From positions 59,148,001 to 59,212,000 of the forward strand of contig NW_027362764.1 in assembly GCF_046119375.1 (NCBI RefSeq): DNA of 64,000 nt, written 5' to 3'. The translations under genes were made by a program, and so were the position numbers. Source of the stretch: Phyllobates terribilis. Taxonomy: Eukaryota. Positions 8,075 to 64,000 of this stretch are shown in pieces; the stretch's first letter is position 1; every line of letters begins with the position of its first letter. Below the pieces are notes generated by a model. It did not search any database. It was not told where the DNA came from and saw only the letters and a program-made list of their open reading frames with translations.

Positions 8075-8479
8075 TTATATTTGATATGTATTATAGGACA
8101 TATGCTGCGCACCCACCACTCACATGCTGGAGATAAGCTGCCCACGCACCAGTCGCACATTAGATCAGTGCTGCACATGCACCACTCACACGCTGGAAAT
8201 ATGCTGCACATGCACCACTCACACACTGGACATGTGCTGCGCATGCACCACTCACACTGGATATATACTGTTATACTGTACATACAGCACTCACACTGGA
8301 TATATGTGGTGCATGCACCACTCACACTGTATATAAGCTGTGCATGAACTGCTCAAGCTGGAAATTTGCTGCACATGCACCAATCACACACTGTAAATAT
8401 CCTGCGTATGCACAACTTACACTGGATATATGTTGTGCATGTACCACTCACACTGGAAATATGCAGCACATGCACCACT
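8075..8479. repeat. Minisatellite of about 34 bp (tgctgcacatgcaccactcacacactgga), left part
   Basis: Tandem degenerate units that resume at 13401. Confidence 0.8.
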
Positions 8480-9948
8480 TGTGAGTGTGAACTGTGATAG
8501 TAGCAGGAGAGCATTAGGACCCTGTAAGTTTTGCCTGGCTGAGCTCAGAGCAGGGGCAGAGCCGGAGACCCTGTGTGTTCTGAGGGTGTCTGCTGTGTGA
8601 GACGCTGGAAGGAGAGTCTGAGGAGAACTGCAAGGACTGAACTGCAATAAGACTCTCTCTACAAGCTTTCTTGTGGGGGTTGATAACCCGTGGCCCTGGT
8701 GAAGCTGTGTCCCTACTTAAGAACGAGTGCTGAGCTGGGGAAAGCTGTGTGGGTCTTTGGAGTTTTGTGGAAGTCTATGCTGAGTGGACTAGAGACTTTG
8801 TGCTGAATGAGCCAAGTGTCGAGTGAGAGGGAAAGAGACTGAGGAATCCATCTCTGTGATGGAGCACATGGTCGGTGGTCTGGAAAACAGTGAGTGACTG
8901 CGAGAGGAGAGACAGAGTCTGGAGCTATTCACATTGAGAGGATACTGACAAGCCTGGTGAAGAGTTCTTCCCGGACCTTAACCTGAGGCTACAGGACTAA
9001 AGTCCCCGACGTGTGGGCTCAGCATCGGCTGATAAGACAAGGAACCTTTGCTGTTTTTGTGAACATTGCTTTTGTTTGGCGCCAACGTTTTCCGGGACTA
9101 GCTGCAGCCACCGCGATTCACAGGCCTGTGATAGACCACATCTGAGGTTAACGGTACCGTAACTGTAAGATACCCGGGTATCCCTATACTAGGGGAATAA
9201 GGCAATTGGTAAAGTTTCATGCATTGTTAGGCTGCGTGCCCACGTTGCGGATTACAAGCGTTTTTGATGCGTAATTTCCGCAGCGTAAACGCTTGTAAAA
9301 CGCTTGTTAATCCGCACCCCATGGTCCCCAATGAGAATCCGCAAGTTCTATGCCCATGATGCGGATTTTTTCGCAGCGTTTATGCTGAGTTCAAAAATAC
9401 GCAGCATGTTCATTAATTTTGCGTTTCCGCATGCGGAATTGCCTTATTCAATGCATGAAAAAACGCAAGGCAATTCCGCATGTCGAAAACGCGTGAAAAA
9501 TGCGCGATAAACGCACAATAAACGCGTGTGGAATTCCGCATGCGTTTTTCCGGGACAGGACATGCGGAAATGAAGCAGAAATTTTCTGCTTCATTTCCGC
9601 AACGTGGGCACATAGCCTTATTGTTAATAGTGGTAGGATTGTACTCAGTGTGCCATCTCAGGGGTCCCTATAGAACACCCTCAATAGACTGACACTGTGT
9701 TTAGGTAAAATTGTTCCAGATCTCTAGAATAATTCACATAAACTGGAAACCTTGAGATTGGCACATTGATTTCAGCTTTTGCTGATTGTGTGTATTTAGT
9801 AGAGACAGTGTCCCAGGTAGAACCTGAGACTGATTCATGCAATACTGAATTTTAGTCTAATCCCTGTTTTAGTAAAGAAAGTGTTGTTTATTTCTGTCTC
9901 TGTCTCAGTTTGTGACTCACTGGATCTCGCTCGGACCTCCGGTCATTA
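8480..9948 (+). mobile_element. LTR-like segment of an unassigned family, containing a MITE insertion
   Basis: Starts with TG (tgtgag) exactly where the minisatellite breaks; AGTAAA poly(A)-like signal near 9871; no ORF; no second copy in the window. Confidence 0.45.
9230..9617. mobile_element. PIF/Harbinger-type MITE
   Basis: TIRs ggctgcgtgcccacgttgcg / cgcaacgtgggcacatagcc; TTA TSD at 9227-9229 and 9618-9620. Confidence 0.8.
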
Positions 9949-11276
9949 TGTAGCACCCCGAGGGCTCGGCTGCTACAGGGGTATTGCACCTCAAACCAGA
10001 GGTGTGGTATTCCACTCCCGGGTAAGGATGGAGTGTGGACCAGGACTCAGTAGCTGCATGCACCACACACACCCCATTTCCGAGGGACAGCTCAACGGTG
10101 CTCCCACAAGATAGAAGTACAGGCACGACAGCTTCTGTTCCTGGCTGGAGTGGGGAGGGGAAAGTACACCCAGTGGTGTAGGAGCAGATAGGGGTGGGTT
10201 TCTGGGCATAGATAGGAGCCCATTGGTTGCTAGTCACCTGGGCTCACACATAGAGGGAGGTATATAAGGTGGGCACCATCTTAGATCAGTGTTCAGTTCA
10301 GGCAGGAGGAGAAGAGGAGAGGAGCTCAGCCAGAGAGGGCTGACAGGGAGCTGTGGCTCAGTCTGGGCCCAGCTCCAGAGGCAGGCCTGGAGTGGAGGCC
10401 AGAAGCAGCAGAGAGAGAGAGGAGGAGGAACAGAAAGGAAAGTAAGAAAGGAACTGGAACAGAGGAGAAAGGAAGCAAAGAACACAGAGAAAGGCCCAGA
10501 GACACGAAGGCAGAAGGAACCCCATATGCCCAGAGGAGATACTGGGTGAAGGGTTGGCAGAATAGGGTACCGGAACCCAGATTGGTGGAGGCAACAGATT
10601 CCTCAGCCAAAGACCGGAGGTTGTTACCACATCTTGGTGTGACCCCTCACTACATCCACCAGAAAGGTATACCGTATAGGGTCAGGGAAACCGGAGAGAG
10701 GTTTCGCCAATAGAAGGCCCGAGGAAGCTGGACAAAGGTGGGTCCCTGGTGGGGACGGCCAGTAGAAAGGAAGAGAGGGGAGCTCTGAGCCACACTCTGG
10801 AATTGCCTGGGAGTTGACCGAGTCCCTCACCTGGTGGAAGCAGCACGGCTTGGGCAGTCATCGCCTGCAGCATTGACCTGAATAACAACCGTGAGTAAAG
10901 CTTTGGAAACTGCAATTACAAGTCTCTGTGTTTCATCGCCGCACCAGCACCATCAGTACTGGGACACTCACACCATCACTACCACCATCATCCACATTAG
11001 CTGCCCTGAGGCAATACTCCTCCCGTGGGGAGTTATCCCATACTCAGCTGCGCAACCAACACCAGCCTCAGCGGTCGGCAGCGCAGCGGCGGTCCCCACT
11101 GACCGCAATCCACGGGTGGCGTAGTCGGACATTTGTTACAACATTAAGACTGCCACTGGTTTGACCACCCTGGGCACGGACCGGGTCACCGCCACGGAGA
11201 ACTACAACCCCCAGCGATCCGGCTCCGGGTATTCCCCCTGCACAGTAGCTGCAGCACAGGCCCAGGGGGCGCGTCA
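9949..11276 (+). mobile_element. 5' LTR of a tRNA-Ser-primed LTR retroelement (1328 bp)
   Basis: TG...CA ends (tgtagcacccc...gcgcgtca); TATA-like tatataa near 10261; AGTAAA near 10895. The 3' portion is homologous to the solo LTRs at 45823-46831 and 48329-49321. Followed by a PBS. Confidence 0.85.
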
Positions 11277-11280
11277 ACTT

Positions 11281-11298
11281 TGGCGTAGTCGGCAGGAT
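11281..11298 (+). promoter_or_regulatory. Primer-binding site complementary to the 3' end of tRNA-Ser
   Basis: TGGCGTAGTCGGCAGGAT is the reverse complement of ATCCTGCCGACTACG+CCA, the 3' end of vertebrate tRNA-Ser(AGA/TGA type). It lies 4 nt after the LTR end. Confidence 0.9.
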
Positions 11299-11348
11299 CG
11301 TTACCAACCCGCCACAAGCGGGTATTGCGTGCCTGAAGAAAACTGCAC

Positions 11349-11687
11349 ATGTACCTTAAAAAGAAGTCTCCCGCCATTTCCAGAAGTTTCCCGCTGTCCG
11401 GAGTCGTTTCCCGCCATCCGGAGCCGATTCCCGCCATCAGACGCCATTTTGGACCGTTTCCCGCCATCTTCATCCGTTTTTCCCGCCCTGGCAGAGCGGA
11501 CGCCATTATGTGCGCACCAAAGGACAGCAGGAAGCCACCTCCCATCGTGGGCCAGGTCCCAGGGTGGCGCCAAAGAAGGAGCCCGCCCCCACCAGCCATG
11601 AATGCAGCAATGGAGATGTCCATCAACGTGGGGGGGCTGCCCCTGAAGGTGATTGTCAGCAGATGCCCCCAAGACCAACCCCCATGA
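11349..11687 (+). pseudogene. N-terminal part of the retroelement cargo ORF, separated from the 358-aa ORF by one in-frame TGA
   Basis: Same frame as 11757-12833. After TGA (11685-11687) the frame reads GRIGKKTEGLGAAWISLDLLHPE directly into the Met at 11757. Confidence 0.5.
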
Positions 11688-11756
11688 GGGAGGATAGGAA
11701 AGAAAACTGAGGGGCTGGGTGCGGCCTGGATCAGTCTGGACCTGCTGCACCCGGAG

Positions 11757-12833
11757 ATGGAGGGAGCAGAAAACTCCACCAACACCCTGGCCCGCAGCCT
11801 GCTGCAAGCGGAGCCACCCTGCAGCCTGACAGAACTGCTGGCACAACTGCCTAGAGACCCGGACCGTGCGCGCGCAGCGCTGGAAGATCTGAATAGAAGA
11901 ATGGTCCGGGCGCAGCGGGATGTGTTTGCCGGGTGGAGAGAGGAGATGGCCCGGCAGCACGGAGGTGACCAGCAGAGGACCCCGCCGGAACCGGGCAGCG
12001 CGCTTACCACTGGGCGCGGAGAAGAGAGACCGGCAGCTGCAGATGACGCCGCGGAGGAGGCCACGGAGACCGAGGCAGGTAATGGGGACGCCACCATCCC
12101 AAGCCCGGGGAACACCAGCCTGCCCTCACCCTCCGTTGCGGGACCCGAAGCCCCGGGGACCATACCTGACACCACGCCTCCACCGCCACCAACTAGGCCT
12201 CAGGCAGCAAGCACCGTCGTCACGCCCCTCCCCGCGCTGTGCCCTCTGAACCCTGGCGCCGTACAGCGTGAGACGTCACAGGCCAGGACGCAAGGCCCAG
12301 CACACCCGGGCGCCGCTGCCTCACCAGCGCCCCCTACCTTGGCGGTGCCACCCCCGGGCGCGACCAACAAGCGACCACCGGCCTGGTCGCAAGGCCGAGT
12401 GCCCCCGGGCGCTGCCACCTGTCCGAAGCCCACAGTGCCACCCTTGGGCGCGGACCTGTATGCCCAATATACCAGCCCGGACGGGCTACCCTTTGAATGG
12501 CCGCCGGAGTTCGCCAACCCCCGTCTCCGGAAAGAGCGACCCCTGAGTGAGCCTTTGATCCCGGCCCCGGAGCCCGCCAACATCGCTCCACCCCTGCCGG
12601 AGGATGCCCAGTTTGCATGGGACCCCACCGGCGAGAACCTCATGGGCTTCACCCAGGAGACCCGGGCGGAAGAAGCCCAGCGCCTGGAGTGCTGCCGTCA
12701 GCAGCTAGCCACCTATGAAAGAGAGCGGCGGCAGAGGCGCATCAGGGACTCCAGGCCAGGAGCGCGGAGCAAAAGAGGGGGGCCCGACAAGACACCCACG
12801 CCGTCCGCGGACCCAGAGCCACCGGGACCGTAG
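11757..12833 (+). CDS. 358-aa Pro/Ala-rich ORF of unknown function inside the LTR element (probably the middle of a longer decayed ORF)
   Basis: GC-rich open frame with helical or coiled-coil-like segments (AALEDLNRRMVRAQRDVFAGWREEMARQ; EEAQRLECCRQQLATYERERRQRR). No zinc knuckle, protease, YxDD or integrase motif. Confidence 0.55.
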   Translation: MEGAENSTNTLARSLLQAEPPCSLTELLAQLPRDPDRARAALEDLNRRMVRAQRDVFAGWREEMARQHGGDQQRTPPEPGSALTTGRGEERPAAADDAAEEATETEAGNGDATIPSPGNTSLPSPSVAGPEAPGTIPDTTPPPPPTRPQAASTVVTPLPALCPLNPGAVQRETSQARTQGPAHPGAAASPAPPTLAVPPPGATNKRPPAWSQGRVPPGAATCPKPTVPPLGADLYAQYTSPDGLPFEWPPEFANPRLRKERPLSEPLIPAPEPANIAPPLPEDAQFAWDPTGENLMGFTQETRAEEAQRLECCRQQLATYERERRQRRIRDSRPGARSKRGGPDKTPTPSADPEPPGP

Positions 12834-13132
12834 TCAAGTTCCAGCTGGAGCATGGCTAGGGCTTCATCAGAGACCCGGAGGCTGACACCGACGTCTTCGT
12901 CACTAGAAGGGACGTTGAAAGCCACCTGCCAGAGGGACATCACGGACGTGACCTGTACCCCGGCGACGTGGTCACCTACACTCGGCACAAGGGCGCAAAG
13001 GGACTGTACGCCCTCCACGTTCACCGGCTCACAGAGGAGGAACTGCAGTACCGCCCAGACACGGAATACACTGAGGATCCGGACGGACCAGAAGATTACC
13101 CGGAGGAGCGAGGAGGACACCGTTACCAGTAA
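12719..13132 (+). pseudogene. Cold-shock-domain (OB-fold) coding segment, -1 frame relative to the 358-aa ORF, with one internal TAG
   Basis: Reads GPRATGTVVKFQLEHG*GFIRDPEADTDVFVTRRDVESHLPEGHHGRDLYPGDVVTYTRHKGAKGLYALHVHR, then an acidic tail to TAA at 13130-13132. Matches the CSD pattern GTVKWF...G[YW]GFI...DVFVH...G[DE]xV[TE][YF]...G.KG..A..V. Confidence 0.78.
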
Positions 13133-13400
13133 ACGGTAAAATGGAACTGTATATAGTTACCCGTCAGGGTATGAGAACTTGCTGAAACTGTTAAATGATT
13201 GAAGTGTGGTCCCCGTTGGGACTAGTGTGGAGTTATTAAAGGGACTGTTACCTGTGTGCCCCTAATCCCTAACCAGGCTGAGGACTGTGAGCAGCCACTC
13301 CCTTATCCCCACTGGCCGAGGACTGAGAGCGGCCACCCCTGTAAATAGTTGCGCTTCCTAAAGCGCCCCCTACTGGTTTTATGCAAAAACCGCAACGTCA

Positions 13401-13750
13401 CACTCATACAATGGAAATATGCTGCGCATGCGTCACTCACACTGGGAATATGCCGCACATGCACCACTCATACACTGGAAATATTGTGCGCATGCGTTAG
13501 TCAGACATTGGATATATTCTGCACATGCACCACTCACACACTGCAAATACATCACTCACACTCTGGACACATGCTGTACACATATCACTGGCATGATGGT
13601 CATCTAGTGTGCTGCACATACACCAATTCCACAATGCAAATATTCCGTATATGCACCACTCACAAACTAGGTTAATCCTGCAGACACAACCGTTCATACA
13701 TGGAGATAGATCTGCCACTTACACATAGGACATATACTTCACAAGCACCA
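13401..13750. repeat. Minisatellite of about 34 bp, right part (continuation of 8075-8479)
   Basis: Same gcacatgcaccactcacacactgga units. Confidence 0.8.
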
Positions 13751-15286
13751 CTCACAAGCTGACACTTCCAGAAACAAAACCACACTCAGATACCCCAAAA
13801 CTACCACGCCAGTCATGCAGCGAGGTAACATTTCCACAGCAACAGCCAACTCTTATCAAAGTCTTACAGTTGCAGAACAATGCCCCCATCCCAATATGGG
13901 GCCCTGTTTTTCTCGGCCCCATGGACACTAAATGGTCTGTCAGGACGTACGAGTGACTGGTCACCATTTATCAACCTGTTCCACACTGCAGAGGTGCAGT
14001 ACAAAGAATTGTCAAAAATTAACTACGCCAACCAACGGGTTTCCGGACCCCAACCAACCATAATAGTAGGGAGCTCACGATAGGGACTAATCAGAAAATC
14101 ACTTTGAGAATGTAATTACACTAGCGTTAGACACATCTCTGCAAACCTCCCCAGCAGTGAGGCGGGGGGTGCCATCTTGGCAGCTAACTAAATCCTGTCA
14201 AAGTCACTGGCCGCGAGCCAAACTGCTCTTAATTACCGGCAGGCAAACATCAAGCAGCTGCCTACGGTTAGTCCGTGTGCGGGCTCTGAACATCCTGCGA
14301 GAACCAGGCATCTTCTTAACATCCTTGACAAATCTGCTGCAGAATTCTAATGTTTTACTTCTGGATGAAATAAGCCCTGGATCCACCTGAAAAACTACCG
14401 AAAAATCACCACAAAAATTTACATAATGCACAGCAATGTCCATTTCCAATTGCTGCGGACATGCTCAGTCTTTTGTTTCTTCTTTTAACCACTTCATTGT
14501 TCAGAAACCCTGAAGCGGTTAAAAGAAGCAACATGTTCCTTCTCCGGGCTTTTTAGTTTGGAAGTTATAATAAAAAATAAAGGCAAAAGACGCAAGCACA
14601 AAAACGAGCACAAAAATGGCGGCAGAACAGCTTCAGGTAGAACGCCGTGACATGTCCATTATTCTGGCGTTTTCCATTCGGAAGACGCTCTGTACTTTAC
14701 AATTCAAATCAATGGGAGCACTCAAAAGACGCCCCCGGAAGACAAGTGGACATTTTTTGGAACATTTTGTCATAGTTTTTGCTTAATAAAACACTAGAAG
14801 TTTCTTCATTATTCAATAGAGTGAAAAAAATGACCAGAAAACTACAGTAAAAGAGACACAAAAACCATCGGAAAACCCTTTAAAAAAAAACGTCCGAAAA
14901 ACACTCAGGAAACCACCAAAAAATGTCACAAATGACGCTCCAAGAAAAAAAACTCCAGAGTTTCCTGAAAAATTTTCTGCTTGAAAACTTGTCAGAGTCG
15001 CCTTACTTTAAAAACGTTGTGGACACACAGCTAATATCTGCTCCCAAAATTTCTAGAAAAAATTCATAGTCCAAAAGTATGTCCTACTAAGAGTTTTCAC
15101 TTGGCTTTTGCTGACTGAACAATCCACGTCAATAAAACACTTCAAAATAAAGTTTTTCTGTTTGTTTTTTTGGGTATTTCTTATTGTTTTTGTGGGGAAG
15201 AATGTTTTTTTTCTGCTTCAATTGATTCAGCAGTTAAATATGAAGTGCTTATTTCAAGAAGAAACACCTAAAAAATGGTCGCTCAC

Positions 15287-50669: not shown

Positions 50670-50860
50670 TGGCAATAGGCAGTAAGAATAGCGTACGTTA
50701 AAAGTTTTCCTGTTACAGGTGACGGTTCAGAATGAGAACAGTTTCTGACCATTATAGGATTGCATTTTACCCCAGTTTTCACATCTGCACGTTCTTTCTA
50801 TAGTTTTCAGTTGTCTGAGATCTAGTGGGTTGAGACTAGCTGCTATGAAGTCTCCTATAC

Positions 50861-53800
50861 ACAGCACACACAGACATGAGGGATTCCTGCTCTCCTGTCT
50901 CTATAGCACACACAGACATGAGGGATTCCTGCTCTCCTGTCTGTATAGCACACACAGACATGAGGGATTCCTGCTCTCCTGTCTGTATAGCACACACAGA
51001 CATGAGGGATTCCTGCTCTCCTGTCTGTATAGCACACACAGACATGAGGGATTCCTGCTCTCCTGTCTGTATAGCACACACAGACATGAGGGACTCCTGC
51101 TCTCCTGACTGTATAGCACACACAGACATGAGGGACTCCTGCTCTCCTGTCTGTATAGCACACACAGACATGAGGGACTCCTGCTCTCCTGTCTGTATAG
51201 CACACATAGACATGAGGGACTCCTGCTCTCCTGTCTGTATAGCACACCCAGACATGAGGGATTCCTGCTCTCCTGTCTGTACAGCACACACAGACATGAG
51301 GGACTCCTGCTCTTCTGTCTGTATAGCACACACAGACATGAGGGACTCCTGCTCTCCTGTCGGTATAGCACACACAGACATGAGGGACTCCTGCTCTTCT
51401 GTCTGTATAGCACACACAGACATGAGGGACTCCTGCTCTCCTGTCTCTATAGCACACACAGACATGAGGGATTCCTGCTCTCCTGTCTCTATAGCACACA
51501 CAGACATGAGGGACTCCTGCTCTCCTGTCTGTATAGCACACACAGACATGAGGGACTCCTGCTCTCCTGTCTGTATAGCACACACAGACATGAGGGACTC
51601 CTGCTCTCCTGTCTCTATAGCACACACAGACATGAGGGATTCCTGCTCTCCTGTCTCTATAGCACACACAGACATGAGGGACTCCTGCTCTCCTGTCTCT
51701 ATAGCACACACAGACATGAGGGATTCCTGCTCTCCTGTCTGTATAGCACACACAGACATGAGGGATTCCTGCTCTACTGTCTGTATATCACACACAGACA
51801 TGAGGGACTCCTGCTCTCCTGTCTGTATAGCACACACAGACATGAGGGATTCCTGCTCTCCTGTCTGTATAGCACACACAGACATGAGGGATTCCTGCTC
51901 TCCTGTCTGTATAGCACACACAGACATGAGGGACTCCTGCTCTCCTGACTGTATAGCACACACAGACATGAGGGACTCCTGCTCTCCTGTCTGTATAGCA
52001 CACACAGACATGAGGGACTCCTGCTCTCCTGTCTGTATGGCACACATAGACATGAGGGACTCCTGCTCTCCTGTCTGTATAGCACACCCAGACATGAGGG
52101 ATTCCTGCTCTCCTGTCTGTACAGCACACACAGACATGAGGGACTCCTGCTCTTCTGTCTGTATAGCACACACAGACATGAGGGACTCCTGCTCTCCTGT
52201 CTGTATAGCACACACAGACATGAGGGACTCCTGCTCTTCTGTCTGTATAGCACACACAGACATGAGGGACTCCTGCTCTCCTGTCTGTATAGCACACACA
52301 GACATGAGGGACTCCTGCTCTCCTGTCTGTATAGCACACACAGACATGAGGGATTCCTGCTCTCCTGTCTCTATAGCACACACAGACATGAGGGACTCCT
52401 GCTCTCCTGTCTCTATAGCACACACAGACATGAGGGATTCCTGCTCTCCTGTCTGTATAGCACACACAGACATGAGGGATTCCTGCTCTACTGTCTGTAT
52501 ATCACACACAGACATGAGGGACTCCTGCTCTCCTGTCTGTATAGCACACACAGACATGAGGGACTCCTGCTCTCCTGTCTGTATAGCACACACAGACATG
52601 AGGGACTCCTGCTCTCCTGTCTGTATAGCACACACAGACATGAGGGATTCCTGCTCTCCTGTCTGTATAGCACACACAGACATGAGGGATTCCTGCTCTA
52701 CTGTCTGTATATCACACACAGACATGAGGGACTCCTGCTCTCCTGTCTGTATAGCACACACAGACATGAGGGACTCCTGCTCTCCTGTCTGTATAGCACA
52801 CACAGACATGAGGGATTCCTGCTCTCCTGTCTGTATAGGACACACAGACATGAGGGATTCCTGCTCTCCTGTCTGTATAGCACACACAGACATGAGGGAC
52901 TCCTGCTCTCCTGTCTGTATAGCACACACAGACATGAGGGACTCCTGCTCTCCTGTCTCTATAGAACACACAGACATGAGGGACTCCTGCTCTCCTGTCT
53001 GTATAGCACACACAGACATGAGGGATTCCTGCTCTCCTGTCTGTATAGCACACACAGACATGAGGGACTCCTGCTCTCCTGTCTCTATAGAACACACAGA
53101 CATGAGGGACTCCTGCTCTCCTGTCTGTATAGCACACACAGACATGAGGGATTCCTGCTCTCCTGTCTCTATAGCACACACAGACATGAGGGATTCCTGC
53201 TCTCCTGTCTGTATAGCACACACAGACATGAGGGATTCCTGCTCTCCTGTCTGTATATCACACACAGACATGAGGGATTCCTGCTCTACTGTCTGTATAG
53301 CACACACAGACATGAGGGACTCCTGCTCTCCTGTCTGTATAGCACACACAGACATGAGGGACTCCTGCTCTCCTGTCTGTATAGCACACACAGACATGAG
53401 GGATTCCTGCTCTCCTGTCTGTATAGGACACACAGACATGAGGGATTCCTGCTCTCCTGTCTGTATAGCACACACAGACATGAGGGATTCCTGCTCTCCT
53501 GTCTGTATAGCACACACAGACATGAGGGACTCCTGCTCTCCTGTCTGTATAGCACACACAGACATGAGGGATTCCTGCTCTCCTGTCTGTATAGCACACA
53601 CAGACATGAGAGACTCCTGCTCTCCAGTCTCTATAGCACACACAGACATGAGGGACTCCTGCTCTCCTGTCTGTATAGCACACACAGACATGAGGGACTC
53701 CTGCTCTCCTGTCTCTATAGCACACACAGACATGAGGGATTCCTGCTCTCCTGTCTGTATAGCACACACAGACATGAAGGATTCCTGCTCTCCTGTCTGT

Positions 53801-54207
53801 ATAGCACACACAGACATGAGGGATTCCTGCTCTCCTGTCTGTATAGCACTCACAGACATGAAGGATTCCTGCTCTCCTGTCTGTATAGCACACACAGACA
53901 TGAGGGACTCCTGCTCTCCTGTCTGTATAGCACACACAGACATGAGGGATTCCTGCTCTCCTGTCTGTATAGCACACACAGACATGAGAGACTCCTGCTC
54001 TCCAGTCTCTATAGCACACACAGACATGAGGGACTCCTGCTCTCCTGTCTGTATAGCACACACAGACATGAAGGATTCCTGCTCTCCTGTCTGTATAGCA
54101 CACACAGACATGAGGGATTCCTGCTCTCCTGTCTGTATAGCACTCACAGACATGAAGGATTCCTGCTCTCCTGTCTGTATAGCACACACAGACATGAGGG
54201 ACTCCTG
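50861..54207. repeat. 42-bp tandem satellite, about 80 copies (atagcacacacagacatgaggga[tc]tcctgctctcctgtctgt)
   Basis: Highly homogeneous head-to-tail units without spacers, embedded in a non-autonomous element beginning near TTAA 50698-50701. Confidence 0.97.
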
Positions 54208-58159: not shown

Positions 58160-58170
58160 CCCCCTCTTCT
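58160..58170 (-). promoter_or_regulatory. Polypurine tract (agaagaggggg)
   Basis: Purine run 3 nt before the 3' LTR on the element strand. Confidence 0.85.
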
Positions 58171-61100
58171 AAGAGGATCCTCCGGATCCCCTAGGCCCAG
58201 GCTTATCAGGAAACCTCCTGTGAAACGCTCTGACAAGTTTTGAAGCAGAAACATCATCCGCCCTCACCCATGAGTTATCCTCGGGTCCGAAACCTTTCCA
58301 AGCGACGAGATACTGCAAACTCCCTCTAAACCGTCTAGAATTTAGGATGCAGGAAATTTCGTATTCCCCGTCCTCCACCACCGGAGGAACAGTGGCAGAG
58401 ACGTCTCCATCCGACACACAAGCTCTTTTCAACAGAGAAACATGAAACACCGGATTAATCTTCCAGGAGGTAGGAACCTCCAACCTAACAGCAGATTGGT
58501 TAACTACCTGAAGCACCTTAAAGGGCCCTACAAACTTGGGACTCAATTTTTTAGAAGGAATCCTCAACCGCAGATTCTTAGAGGACAACCAAACCATGTC
58601 ACCAATAGCAAACAAAGCCTCTTGCCGTTTCCTATCAAAGTACCTCTTAGATTTTTTGTTAGCCTCCTGAAGATTACCACGCACATCCGTCCAAACTCTC
58701 TCCAAGTCACCGGAAAAACTCTCCTCCTCAGGCACAGCCGATACCAATTTGGAGAATGACCCAAAAGACGGATGTCTCCCAGAACAACATAAAAAAGGCG
58801 AACAACCAGCAGAAGAGGATGTATGGTTGTTAAGAGCAAACTCAGCAAGTGGCAGAAACTCAGACCACCCCTCCTGATTGTCTGCCACAAAACAACGCAA
58901 GAACTGCTCAACATCCTGATTCTTCCTTTCTGTCTGGCCATTAGACTCAGGATGATATCCGGATGAAAACGACAAATGAACTCCCAACCTGTCACAAAAA
59001 GCACGCCAAAAACGAGCCACGAACTGAGGTCCCCTATCCGAAACAATGTCAGTAGGAACGCCATGTAGTCTGACAATTTCCTTGACAAAGGCCTTAGCGA
59101 GTGTCTTAGCGCAGGGCAGTTTGATGAAAGGAACCAAGTGACACATCTTGCTAAAACGGTCAACAACCACCCAGATGACTGTGAAACCCTCAGAGGGGGG
59201 GAGGGCAGTAATAAAGTCCATAGCCAGATGTGTCCAAGGTGCACTAGGTACCTCCAGAGGGCAAAGCAACCCCGCAGCAGGAGTATGTGAAGACTTAGAT
59301 CTAGCACACACCGTACATTGACGCACCCACTTAATGACTTCCTTCTGCCATCCAGGCCACCAAAAACTGCGACCCACAAGTCTCTTGGTCTCAGAAATTC
59401 CTGGATGACCTGCCAACCGAGACTCATGACACTCCACAAACAAATCTCTCCTAAAGGTCCTAGGCACAAACAACCTCCCATGGGGAGTGTTAGATGGGGC
59501 ATTCTCCTGTGCTTTAAGAATCTCATCTTCCAAAACGGAGTCCAATGCAGCAATCACAACACCTTCTTGTAAAATGCTCTCCTCCTCCTCCTCAGCACCG
59601 ACCATGGGAGAAAAGCTGCGAGACAAAGCATCAGCTTTAACATTCTTGGTACCCGGGATGTAAGTAACGGAAAAATTAAACCGCGAGAAAAAAAGTGCCC
59701 ACCTAGCCTGACGGGCATTCAAGCGCTTGGCAGCATCAAGATAGATCAGATTTTTATGATCAGTGAAAACCTGAATGGGAAATTCAGCACCTTCCAAGAG
59801 ATGACGCCAGTGTTCAAATGCGAGTTTAATAGCCAGCAATTCCCGATTACCAATATCGTAATTAAGTTCAGTCTCAGAAATTTTTTTTTTAAAAAAAGCA
59901 CAGGGATGTACTCCATCCTTGATTTCCTGAGACAACACTGCACCGACCCCCACCGAAGAAGCATCAACCTCAACCAAAAATGGCTTAGTCACATCAGGCT
60001 GCATAAGGATAGGATCAGAGCTGAACCTCACCTTTAGAAACACAAAAGCTTCAATGGCCTCAGTAGTCCACTGAACCGCATTAGCACCTTTCCTGGTGAG
60101 ATCGGTCAGTGGTTTGACAATAATACAGAAAATTCATTAAAAATTTTTCTAATAATTGGCGAAACCCAAAAACCTCTGTATCGATTTCAAACCAATAGGC
60201 CTAGGCCATTCCTGCACAGCTTGAACTTTAACCGGGTCCATCTCAAAACCTTTACTGGAGATAATGTAGCCCAAAAAACTAATTCTCTGTACAGCAAACT
60301 CACATTTCTCCAGCTTAGCAAAAAGTGAATTGTCCATTAATAACTGTAATACCTCACGTACGCTCCGCCAATGAGACTCCAGATCAGGCGAATAAATCAA
60401 AATGTCATCCAAATACACAACCACATTTTTGCCGATCAAAGGTCTAAGGATGTCATTAATAAGATTCTGAAAAAATGCTGGAGCATTGGTAAGATCAAAA
60501 GGCATAACCAGGTTCTCAAAATGACCCACAGGAGTGTTAAAAGCAGTCTTCCATTCATCACCCTCCTTCATGCGCAACAAATTGTATGCCCCCCGGAGAT
60601 CAATTTTAGAGAACCACTTGGCCCCCACTAACTGGTTAAACAAATCAGGAATCAATGGCAGTGGGTAAGGATTGCGTACAGTAATTTTATTAATCTCACG
60701 AAAGTCCAGACAAGGATGTAAACCGCCGTCCTTTTTTTTAACAAAAAAAAATCCAACAGCCACAGGAGACTTGGAAGGCCTAATGTGACCAGCGGCCAAG
60801 CTTGTCTGTATGTATTCCTCCAAAGCCTTTCTCTCAGGAATAGTAAGATTAAATAAACGACTTTTAGGAAGAGTCGCTCCAGGGACAAATTCAATGGTAC
60901 AATCATAGTCTCTATGGGGAGGCAATATTTGTGACTCCTCCTCAGAAAAAACTCTCCAAAAATCCTGAATAGGTACAGGTAATTCCCCTTTTTCCACCGC
61001 AGCAATACGTCCGTTACAACACTTGTCATAACACTTAGGACTCCAGGACTTAATTTCATTGGTAGACCAATCCAGTACAGGATTGTGCAATTTTAACCAG

Positions 61101-61430
61101 GGTAACCCCAAAATTACTGGAGAAGGCAAATTATTTAATACCACCAAATCCAAATTTTCTTGATGAACACCATTAATAGTGAGGGGAAATTCACAGACCT
61201 TGTGAGTAACACTCTTCAAGGGGGAGCCATCGACAGAAACCACAGCAATAGGGGATGACAAAGGTTTCGGTTTTAATTTAAGTTTTTCCAAGAATCCCCC
61301 ATCAATCACATTCAGAGGAGAACCACAATCCACAAATATCCGAAATTCAATTAATTCTTCCAGAGCAGTGGTAGTAGCAGAAAGAAATACCCCCTTAGAA
61401 TTTAAACAGGCAATACGGGCGTAACTGACC
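58169..61430 (-). pseudogene. pol: Gypsy pol (protease, RT, RNase H, integrase, chromodomain) with clustered in-frame stops near 60134-60151
   Basis: Motifs [37 protein letters not shown]...CTVC, MDFI...DRGPQF...ERKN, GPF and EYEISCILNSRR...YLVAWKG. ORFs 60149-61333 and 58169-60043 share one frame and are separated by TAG/TAA/TGA. Confidence 0.93.
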
Positions 61431-62241
61431 TTTTTTTTTTTTCTTTGTTTATACGAAGTACACAGTTCTTAATAAAATGATCAGATTTTCTGCAATAAAA
61501 GCACAAACCTTCAGAAGATCTGCGGTCTTTTTCCTGAGAGCGGGGTGCTATCGCCCCGATCTCCATTGGCTCTCCAATGTCAGTACAGACTCTCTCAAGA
61601 CTTGGAGCTGACATGGCAGAGGATTTACTTTCATTAACCCTTGCACGCAGTCTCCTGTCCACCCGTATAGCTAATTGCATAGCCTCCTGCAAGTTTCCAG
61701 GTGTGGGATAAGCAATCAGCAAATCTTTAACCCTTTCACCTAGCCCCGCAAGAAACAAACTTTTCAAAGCTGAATCGTTCCACCCCACCTGGGCAGACCA
61801 CCGACGGAAGTGAGAACAATATTTTTCCACATTACCTGATCCCTGCCTCAAATGTCTTAATTCAGTCTCAGCTGATGAAACACGATCAGGATCATCATAC
61901 AACAAACCCAAAGCAGAAAAAAAACTATCCACTGATCTAAAGCATGGATCACTAGGTTGTAGAGAAAAGGCCCATCCCTGAGGTTCTTTGCGCAAAAGTG
62001 ACATTATGAACCCTATGCGCTGTGATTCATCACCAGAGGATCTGGGTCTCAAACGAAAATACAATAAACAAGCATTTTTAAAGGAAAAAAATTCCTGTTG
62101 ATCACCAAAGAATAAATCAGGCAAACGTACCTTTGGCTCCACAAAATGTGCTCCAGAACAGCTACTCACGTGTTGTTGGAGCTCGGCCACCTCTAGAGAG
62201 AGTCCCTGCAGGCGTTGAGCCAAATCCTGAACCGACACCAT
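61402..62241 (-). CDS. gag: Ty3/Gypsy Gag (279 aa) with CCHC zinc knuckle
   Basis: [12 protein letters not shown] and LRHLRQG..V..Y...F capsid-type motifs, PMEIG motif, and [14 protein letters not shown] (CX2CX4HX4C). Confidence 0.93.
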
Positions 62242-62290
62242 GATGGAAACTGGAAGTCTTTCCTTAGAGATATTTTTGGGCTGGACTTAC

Positions 62291-62907: not shown

Positions 62908-64000
62908 CACTATGTGCAGAATTATTAGGCAAATGCATATTTTGATCACATGATACTTTTTATACATGTTGTCCTACTCCAAGCTGCATAGGCTTGAGAG
63001 CCAATTACCAATTAAGTAAATCTGGTGATGTGCATCTCTGTAATGAGGAGGGGTGTTGACTAATGACATCAACACGCTATATAAGGTGTGCTTAATTATT
63101 AGGCAACTTCCTTTCCTTTGGAAAAATGTGTCAGAAGAGAGATCTGACGGGCTCTGAAAAGTCCAAAATTGTGAGATGTCTTGCAGAGGGATGCAGCAGT
63201 CTTGAAATTTCCAAACTTTTGAAGCGTGATCACCGAACAATCAAGCGTTTCATGGCAAATAGCCAACAGGGTCGCAAGAAGAGTGTTGGTCAAAAAAGGC
63301 GCAAAATAACTGCCCATGAATTGAGGAAAATCAAGTGTGAAGCTGCCAAGATGCCATTCACCACCAGTTTTGCCATATTTCAGAGCTGCAACGTTACTGG
63401 TGTATCAAAAAGCACAAGGTGTGCGATACTCAGGGACATGACCAAGGTAAGGAAGGCTGAAAAACGACCACCTTTGAACAAGAAACATAAGATAAAACGT
63501 CAAGAATGGGCCAAGAAATATCTTAAGACTGATTTTTCAAAGGTTTTATGGACTGATGAAATGAGAGTGACTCGTGATGGGCCAGAGGCTGGATCAGTAA
63601 AGGGCAGAGAGCTCCACTCCGACTCAGACGCCAGCAAGGTGGAGGTGGGGTACTGGTATGGGCTGGTATCATCAAAGATGAACTTGTGGGACCTTTTCGG
63701 GTTGAGGATAGAGTGAAGCTCAACTCCCAGACCTACTGCCAGTTTCTGGAAGACAACTTCTTCAAGCAGTGGTACAGGAAGAAGTCGGCATCGTTCAAGA
63801 AAAACATGATTTTCATGCAGGACAATGCTCCATCACATGCATCCAACTACTCCACAGCGTGGCTGGCCAGTAAAGGTCTAAAAGAAGAAAAAATAATGAC
63901 ATGGCCCCCTTGTTCACCTGATCTGAACCCCATAGAGAACCTGTGGTCCATCATAAAATGTGAGATCTACAGGGAGGGAAAACAGTACACCTCTCGGAAC
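62908..64000 (+). mobile_element. Tc1-like DD37E (TRT-type) transposon running off the window end
   Basis: TA-cactatgtgcagaattattaggcaa left TIR; transposase WTDE...QDNAPSH...SPDLNPIE with 37 residues between D and E. Confidence 0.9.
63126..64000 (+). pseudogene. DD37E transposase with a frameshift near 63580
   Basis: ORF 63126-63716 is correct to RDGP, then the homologous text continues in another frame (GWISKGQRAPLRLRRQQGGGGVLVWAGIIKDELVGP...QDNAPSH...NPIENLW). Confidence 0.85.

Follow-up and report, generated by a model that had tools for sequence, protein, structure and literature searches.

A high-copy LTR element without pol in a poison frog, likely mobilised by a gypsy element, carries a single ORF that ends in a conserved cold-shock domain

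The window analysed here, 64,000 nucleotides of the Phyllobates terribilis genome, hosts a copy of an approximately 5-kb LTR retrotransposon that has a tRNA-Ser primer-binding site (PBS), a polypurine tract (PPT) and 4-bp target-site duplications (TSDs), and that lacks both gag and pol. The parts of this copy are collected in Table 1. The window copy is dead: it carries two stops and a 7-bp deletion, and its 3′ end is missing. The earlier note on this DNA had placed a cold-shock domain (CSD) inside an LTR element. That setting holds for the family, whereas the window copy keeps the 5′ LTR alone, and its LTR nature therefore rests on the other copies.

Table 1. Parts of the element copy in the window, with positions counted from the first letter of the window
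Feature	Position	Strand	Remark
5′ LTR (TG...CA, ~1.33 kb)	9949..11276	+	last ~380 bp in common with the autonomous gypsy element
TATA-like site in 5′ LTR	10261	+	
PBS-like duplicate in 5′ LTR	11117-11128	+	upstream of the true PBS
Primer-binding site, after a 4-nt spacer	11281..11298	+	complementary to the 3′ end of host tRNA-Ser(AGA/TGA)
Leader; its pyrimidine-rich TTTCCCGCCATC-type repeats lie at 11372-11468	11299..11507	+	~83% identical to the helper leader
Single ORF, interrupted here by a stop at 11685, a 7-bp deletion at ~12745 and a stop at 12857	11508..13132	+	
Conserved W-x-x-x-x-x-x-L-M-G-F motif region and predicted ~45-residue charged helix before the CSD	12663..12790 (approximate; the frameshift splits the region)	+	omega 0.18
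Cold-shock domain, predicted five-stranded OB barrel, with stop 12857-12859 inside	12821..13024	+	omega 0.08
Acidic C-terminal tail and terminal stop	13025..13132	+	
First part of the 3′ untranslated region, up to the element end at 13399; no PPT or 3′ LTR	13133..13399	+	33-bp minisatellite follows

Several other repeats share the window. An identical 33-bp minisatellite flanks the element on both sides (8083-8488 and 13400-13760), and what may be a solo LTR from a different family lies at about 8490-9190. A separate gypsy element with a chromodomain occupies 58169-62286 on the minus strand in three frames (gag, PR-RT and RH-IN-chromo), and a Tc1-like transposase fragment (HTH_Tnp_Tc3_2, below cut-off) is found at 63096-63716 (+). 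The long stop-free frames at 50739-54200 are likely the product of a 42-bp tandem repeat of about 80 copies. The partial PBS copy within the LTR also occurs in the LTRs of the loci L084 and L092, in the helper LTRs described below and in unrelated PNMA-gag families.

The plus-strand frame 12719-13132 is as the earlier note described it, with no Met and a lone internal TAG at 12857-12859; its terminal TAA lies at 13130-13132. It is not the stand-alone, hidden CSD ORF that the note had taken it for. The CSD is the C-terminal end of one ORF of about 540-600 codons, from which it is severed in the window copy by the deletion near 12745, a lesion absent from 29/29 compared copies. The stop at 11685 is a sense codon in all 28 copies that cover it, and the stop at 12857 recurs in just one of the 29 compared copies. 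When 20 copies were fetched, 13 were open from a conserved ATG through to the ORF end. Eight of the 20 encode 596 amino acids and five encode 543, both forms ending in the CSD; in the open sibling copies the longer form begins at an upstream ATG (11349), and the second ATG, which gives the 543-residue form, is the one conserved across subfamilies. The earlier view of the CSD as sole cargo stands in that it is the only recognisable Pfam domain in 4/4 full proteins, but it forms part of a 540-600-residue protein. A structure model of the full-length protein is mostly disordered (pLDDT 49). Model and sequence together suggest the order helix (~118-154), Pro-rich linker, long helix, CSD and acidic tail. 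A degenerate Gag was rejected as the origin of this protein, with an HHalign probability of 0.2% against the helper Gag. Neither shorter nor longer homologs came out of our protein searches, which is weak evidence.

A search of the 10.6-Gb genome with the window CSD DNA gave 3,634 candidates, and the 40 that were scored are all 98-100% identical to the query. The 20 copies fetched for anatomy were among the best-matching ones, and picking them by likeness to the window CSD favours young copies. They are laid out as LTR (1.33 kb), internal region (~2.45 kb) and LTR. Paired TG...CA LTRs, 97.6-99.6% identical, bound 17 of the 20 (three being duplicates of one insertion). Among these 17, the TSD is an exact 4-bp repeat in 14, has one mismatch in two and is unresolved in one; the internal region is about 2.45 kb in 16, the remaining copy being a tandem of two units. 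Across element copies more widely, the internal region spans about 2.0-3.2 kb and holds one ORF. The PPT that the window copy lacks was found in sibling copies, and the PBS is complementary to tRNA-Ser(AGA/TGA) genes of the host itself. In one tandem derivative (L318), the ORF has taken up 36 nt of tRNA-Ser including the CCA, which directly records reverse transcription primed by a tRNA. L318 and L279 (G000:C7:417273518) are tandem copies in which the tRNA-Ser piece is joined by microhomology and the leader is deleted.

The family is large. The genome contains 24,003 exact matches to a degenerate, 29-nt CSD motif, against 0 for the reversed pattern used as control. The element is covered by contigs from four runs of uncertain type, which are uninformative on transcription. 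The viral contigs searched contained no element locus, and metagenome contigs gave four generic matches at 30-45%.

The identity of the domain as a diverged CSD, proposed in the earlier note, is confirmed at several levels. With X placed at the internal stop, the frame matches Pfam CSD (PF00313) across positions 2-64 of the 66-position profile, scoring 34.6 bits (cut-off 27) with E=1.8e-8; no other Pfam family matched the 12719-13132 frame. Four of four open sibling copies score 30.8-33 bits. The alternative frame 12834-13139 was rejected, as no Pfam family reached the cut-off there, and the minus-strand frame over the CSD region likewise gave no Pfam family above cut-off. Among 44 open-frame copies, the +1 frame over the CSD has at least one stop in 42 and the +2 frame is closed in all 44. 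The OB fold that the note expected is also predicted: in the AlphaFold2 model of an unbroken natural sibling, built on a 10-row alignment, a 45-residue helix is followed by five strands (pLDDT 76). A Foldseek search with this model ranks CspA, CspC and YBX1/2 first, at E-values of 2e-5 to 5e-5 (2e-5 to CspA and YBX2), with an rmsd of 1.5-2.6 for the top seven and a TM-score by target of up to 0.89. The PDB sequence matches of the CSD are Csp and YBX proteins too. An ESM Atlas search returned bacterial CSD look-alikes only, all below 0.9.

Of the canonical CSD binding residues, the RNP1 aromatics survive, as does the RNP2 Phe, but 10/10 aligned copies have other residues in place of the KWF-strand Trp and the RNP2 His. 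This beta-1 Trp and the RNP2 His are typical of RNA-binding CSDs, and their replacement means that the ligand of the element CSD may differ. The 10-row alignment shows other residues to be invariant: an R-R-D after RNP2, T-R-H and Y-A-L. The W/LMGF motif is conserved. In fold and in RNP1/RNP2 layout the domain resembles CspA, YBX1/2, LIN28, CARHSP1 and CSDE1, and the length of the loop after RNP2 is nearer that of YBX1 than that of bacterial Csp. It differs from these known CSD proteins in its replaced Trp and His, in an identity of only about 30%, in forming a long-branch clade of its own, and in being intronless and mobile.

The earlier note's expectation of purifying selection is borne out. 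Codon models place the CSD at an omega of 0.08 across subfamilies, in a sample biased by its entry rule (an open frame and a match to the CSD motifs). These models used 30 of the 44 open CSD frames, after exclusion of subfamily-A near-duplicates and one short row. Fixing the CSD omega at 1 costs 287 log-likelihood units (2dlnL about 575). Elsewhere in the ORF, omega is 0.18 for the motif and helix, 0.38 for the N-terminus and 0.43 for the linker. Pairwise CSD omega is 0.05-0.27 across those subfamily pairs for which dS could be estimated, synonymous distances being saturated between distant subfamilies. The subfamily-B copies, which were chosen by their PBS or as neighbours and not via a CSD search, show the same pattern, with an omega of 0.06 for the CSD against 0.41 for the linker. 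A count of singleton and shared variants in subfamily A (shared CSD N:S 2:17) was set aside, as those copies had been chosen by CSD similarity.

The CSD is kept in all the subfamilies we compared, which are 47-70% identical over the protein, and also in remoter ones with another PBS. A second pol-less LTR family has 1,032-bp LTRs, the same tRNA-Ser PBS as the window family, a different PPT and an 819-aa frame; its CSD is 33% identical to that of the window and falls in the same clade. In copies of this second family (L302-L314, e.g. G000:C4:600021875) the 819-aa frame begins inside the LTR, and the copies are often in tandem. Still more divergent CSDs are present at low copy. Three such frames (L282-L284, G000:C4:791.48-791.52 Mb) lie about 17-19 kb apart and have retained the RNP2 His. 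No paired LTRs were found around them, and they would be either an old insertion or a domesticated copy.

In a CSD tree of 74 rows and 75 columns, the 24 element-type CSDs form one group with 100/100 support on a branch of 1.42, apart from CSDE1 and from one decayed YBX-like copy. The remaining rows are 5 CSDs of the host and 45 further CSDs; six rows, partial or frameshifted, had been dropped, and intact YBX, LIN28 and CARHSP1 are absent from the tree. Among the best 150 of 669 profile matches, the named relatives come from poison frogs only, as uncharacterised proteins in Phyllobates, Ranitomeya and Anomaloglossus. A public R3HCC1 gene model (P0004) opens with an element-type CSD, through either exonisation or an annotation artefact. 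Intronless CSDE1 retrocopy fragments, partly duplicated and LINE-interrupted, are found at G000:C1:734.44 Mb (L241-L246).

An element without pol would need enzymes from elsewhere, and a candidate supplier emerged from searches with the LTR end. Of 30 loci chosen solely by LTR end and PBS, 16 belong to the CSD family, 11 carry gag, two are deletion derivatives and one is unclassified. The gag-carrying elements are of Ty3/gypsy (Metaviridae) type, 7.8-8.2 kb long, with a PNMA-like Gag and a full pol in the order PR-RT-RH-IN; matches to a CCHC knuckle in this Gag are weak and below the curated cut-off. Their LTR pairs are 97.3-100% identical, 6 of 14 have an open pol of 1,336-1,337 aa, and none of the 14 carries a CSD. 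A helper gag motif has 27,730 matches in the genome, against 0 for its reversed-pattern control. A separate search through the PNMA family had led to other gypsy families with a different PBS.

The passenger differs from these Ty3/gypsy elements in lacking gag and pol and in its U3, while the two have the LTR end, PBS, leader, a near-identical PPT and the 4-bp TSD in common. In one helper, 583 bp of LTR end and leader are 83% identical to the passenger, and the PPT junction is also common to both; the leader is, we infer, a candidate packaging signal. In a tree built from the final 300 bp of the LTR (72 rows: 55 CSD, 16 helper and 1 other), the well-supported branches require at least seven changes between helper and CSD labels, or perhaps six, since one row (L155) is wrongly labelled. 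Furthermore, one locus (L238) is a chimera in which helper LTRs, leader and 3′ end enclose a fragment of the CSD ORF. Passenger and helper thus appear to swap LTR ends repeatedly. These apparent swaps, together with the common LTR end, PBS, leader and PPT, make the gypsy element the likely helper. The tree and the chimera would fit co-packaging with template switching, with gene conversion as an alternative. L237 and L238 are internally deleted and retain only a remnant of the CSD ORF, and their paired LTRs are about 99% identical and bounded by TSDs. Such young CSD-less derivatives indicate that there is no strict need for the CSD in cis.

Taken together, the sequences point to a high-copy, pol-less LTR element, with an ORF ending in a conserved CSD, that is likely mobilised by a gypsy element. 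What the protein does is less certain. We put a probability of roughly 0.6 on the reading that it binds the RNA of its own element and so improves the survival or packaging of that RNA. The element RNA would be packaged in a helper Gag particle, and helper RT and integrase would copy and insert it. The CSD protein would bind single-stranded RNA, mainly its own transcript and possibly at the C/U-rich leader repeats, and once bound would protect or chaperone the RNA, or steer it into helper particles. Binding of its own RNA would explain why a passenger bears the cost of a protein. The role offered by the earlier note, a substitute for the nucleocapsid, is not obviously needed, as the helper Gag has a CCHC knuckle of its own, albeit a weak match. 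According to the available part of PMC6040738, host YB-1 supports HIV replication, which by analogy makes a CSD role in a retroelement cycle plausible, without being proof for the frog element.

It is also conceivable, if unlikely, that the CSD protein acts in trans as a germline anti-silencing or RNA-stabilising factor, for example through competition with host Y-box proteins or small-RNA pathways. It would then aid passenger and helper alike, as a mutualistic satellite. Y-box proteins are themselves mostly disordered with a CSD, as is the element protein. The continued mobilisation of CSD-less deletion derivatives and the about equal motif counts of helper and passenger are in keeping with such an action, as is the high gypsy RNA in poison-frog ova (reported in the available part of PMC6278860). 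Yet a purely trans benefit should let CSD-less copies dominate, whereas the PBS-picked loci hold 16 CSD-family members and two deletion derivatives among 30, and the low pairwise omega persists across subfamilies.

We consider it improbable that the OB fold has been repurposed to bind DNA or a protein, such as helper Gag, integrase or a host factor, making it an adaptor for particle entry or integration. The loss of the canonical Trp and His, the new invariant R-R-D, T-R-H and Y-A-L, the conserved helix with its W/LMGF motif and the long branch to all other CSDs would suit an adaptor. What speaks against it is the retention of the entire barrel, with the aromatics of RNP1 and the Phe of RNP2 in place. 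There is very little to recommend selection at the level of the host, with a few source loci being domesticated genes and the thousands of copies their by-products. Some copies do have public gene models, one of them fused to R3HCC1, and the three divergent CSDs on C4 form a low-copy cluster, but there are many young subfamilies, with LTRs 98-99.9% identical, and each shows a low omega in dispersed copies with differing TSDs. The least credible account, that of a passively captured and functionless host fragment, would suit the window copy as a pseudogene but not an omega of 0.08 with saturated synonymous sites and closed alternative frames, nor the retention of the CSD in two element families in which the domain is only 33% alike.

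The RNA-binding reading adds to a well-known way of life. VL30 and ETn of mouse, LARD and TRIM of plants and MaLR of mammals are non-autonomous LTR passengers, either non-coding or with a Gag-derived ORF. The element described here is like them in its LTRs, PBS, PPT and candidate packaging leader, and in probably borrowing Gag and Pol from a helper. It differs in having a non-Gag ORF with an RNA-binding-type fold under strong purifying selection. Among frog elements, the closest in kind are Xenopus 1A11, Xretpos and lambda-olt 2-1, which the available parts of PMC4585706 and PMC3337140 describe as embryo-expressed LTR elements with an ORF without pol homology. The 71-kDa protein of 1A11 is described there as Gag-like, the copies number tens to hundreds and the authors suppose the elements to be immobile. 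1A11 and Xretpos resemble our element in this respect, it too being a frog LTR element that has an ORF but lacks pol. The poison-frog element is set apart from their descriptions in those sources by the lack of any Gag likeness, the terminal CSD, about 24,000 motif matches and a matching helper that looks active.

The capture of unrelated domains also has a parallel in bdelloid LTR elements, whose ORF3 encodes an esterase, an exonuclease or env (PMC5408684, in the part available). There the ORF3 belongs to autonomous elements, whereas here the domain is carried by a dependent element distinct from the helper, which has no CSD. Two poison-frog genome papers report abundant and ovary-expressed gypsy elements, and what was available of their main texts makes no mention of cold-shock cargo or non-autonomous elements (PMC6278860, PMC11152451). 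Our literature search, with Repbase, Dfam and subscription journals outside its scope, yielded no title or abstract opening on a CSD-coding LTR element. Non-autonomous gypsy passengers as such are familiar, and one that keeps a selected non-Gag CSD protein appears to be undescribed.

More broadly, and at odds that we would set a little short of even, poison frogs may host an old and diverse superfamily of satellite LTR elements that depend on gypsy elements. In it, a captured CSD would be the sole tool, serving either to take over the particles of the helper or to defeat RNA control in the germline, and the elements would have multiplied together with their helpers to tens of thousands of copies.

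Non-autonomous LTR elements are usually regarded as non-coding cheats. A non-Gag protein held at such a low omega across many subfamilies points instead to a helper-satellite relationship in a vertebrate genome, of the kind known from satellite viruses. If all the motif matches were full-length, the CSD elements would make up about 1% of the genome. Thousands of CSD-coding repeats lie unrecognised in poison-frog assemblies, some of them annotated as host genes, and the CSD passenger is a concrete candidate for a factor behind the free-running gypsy elements of these giant genomes.
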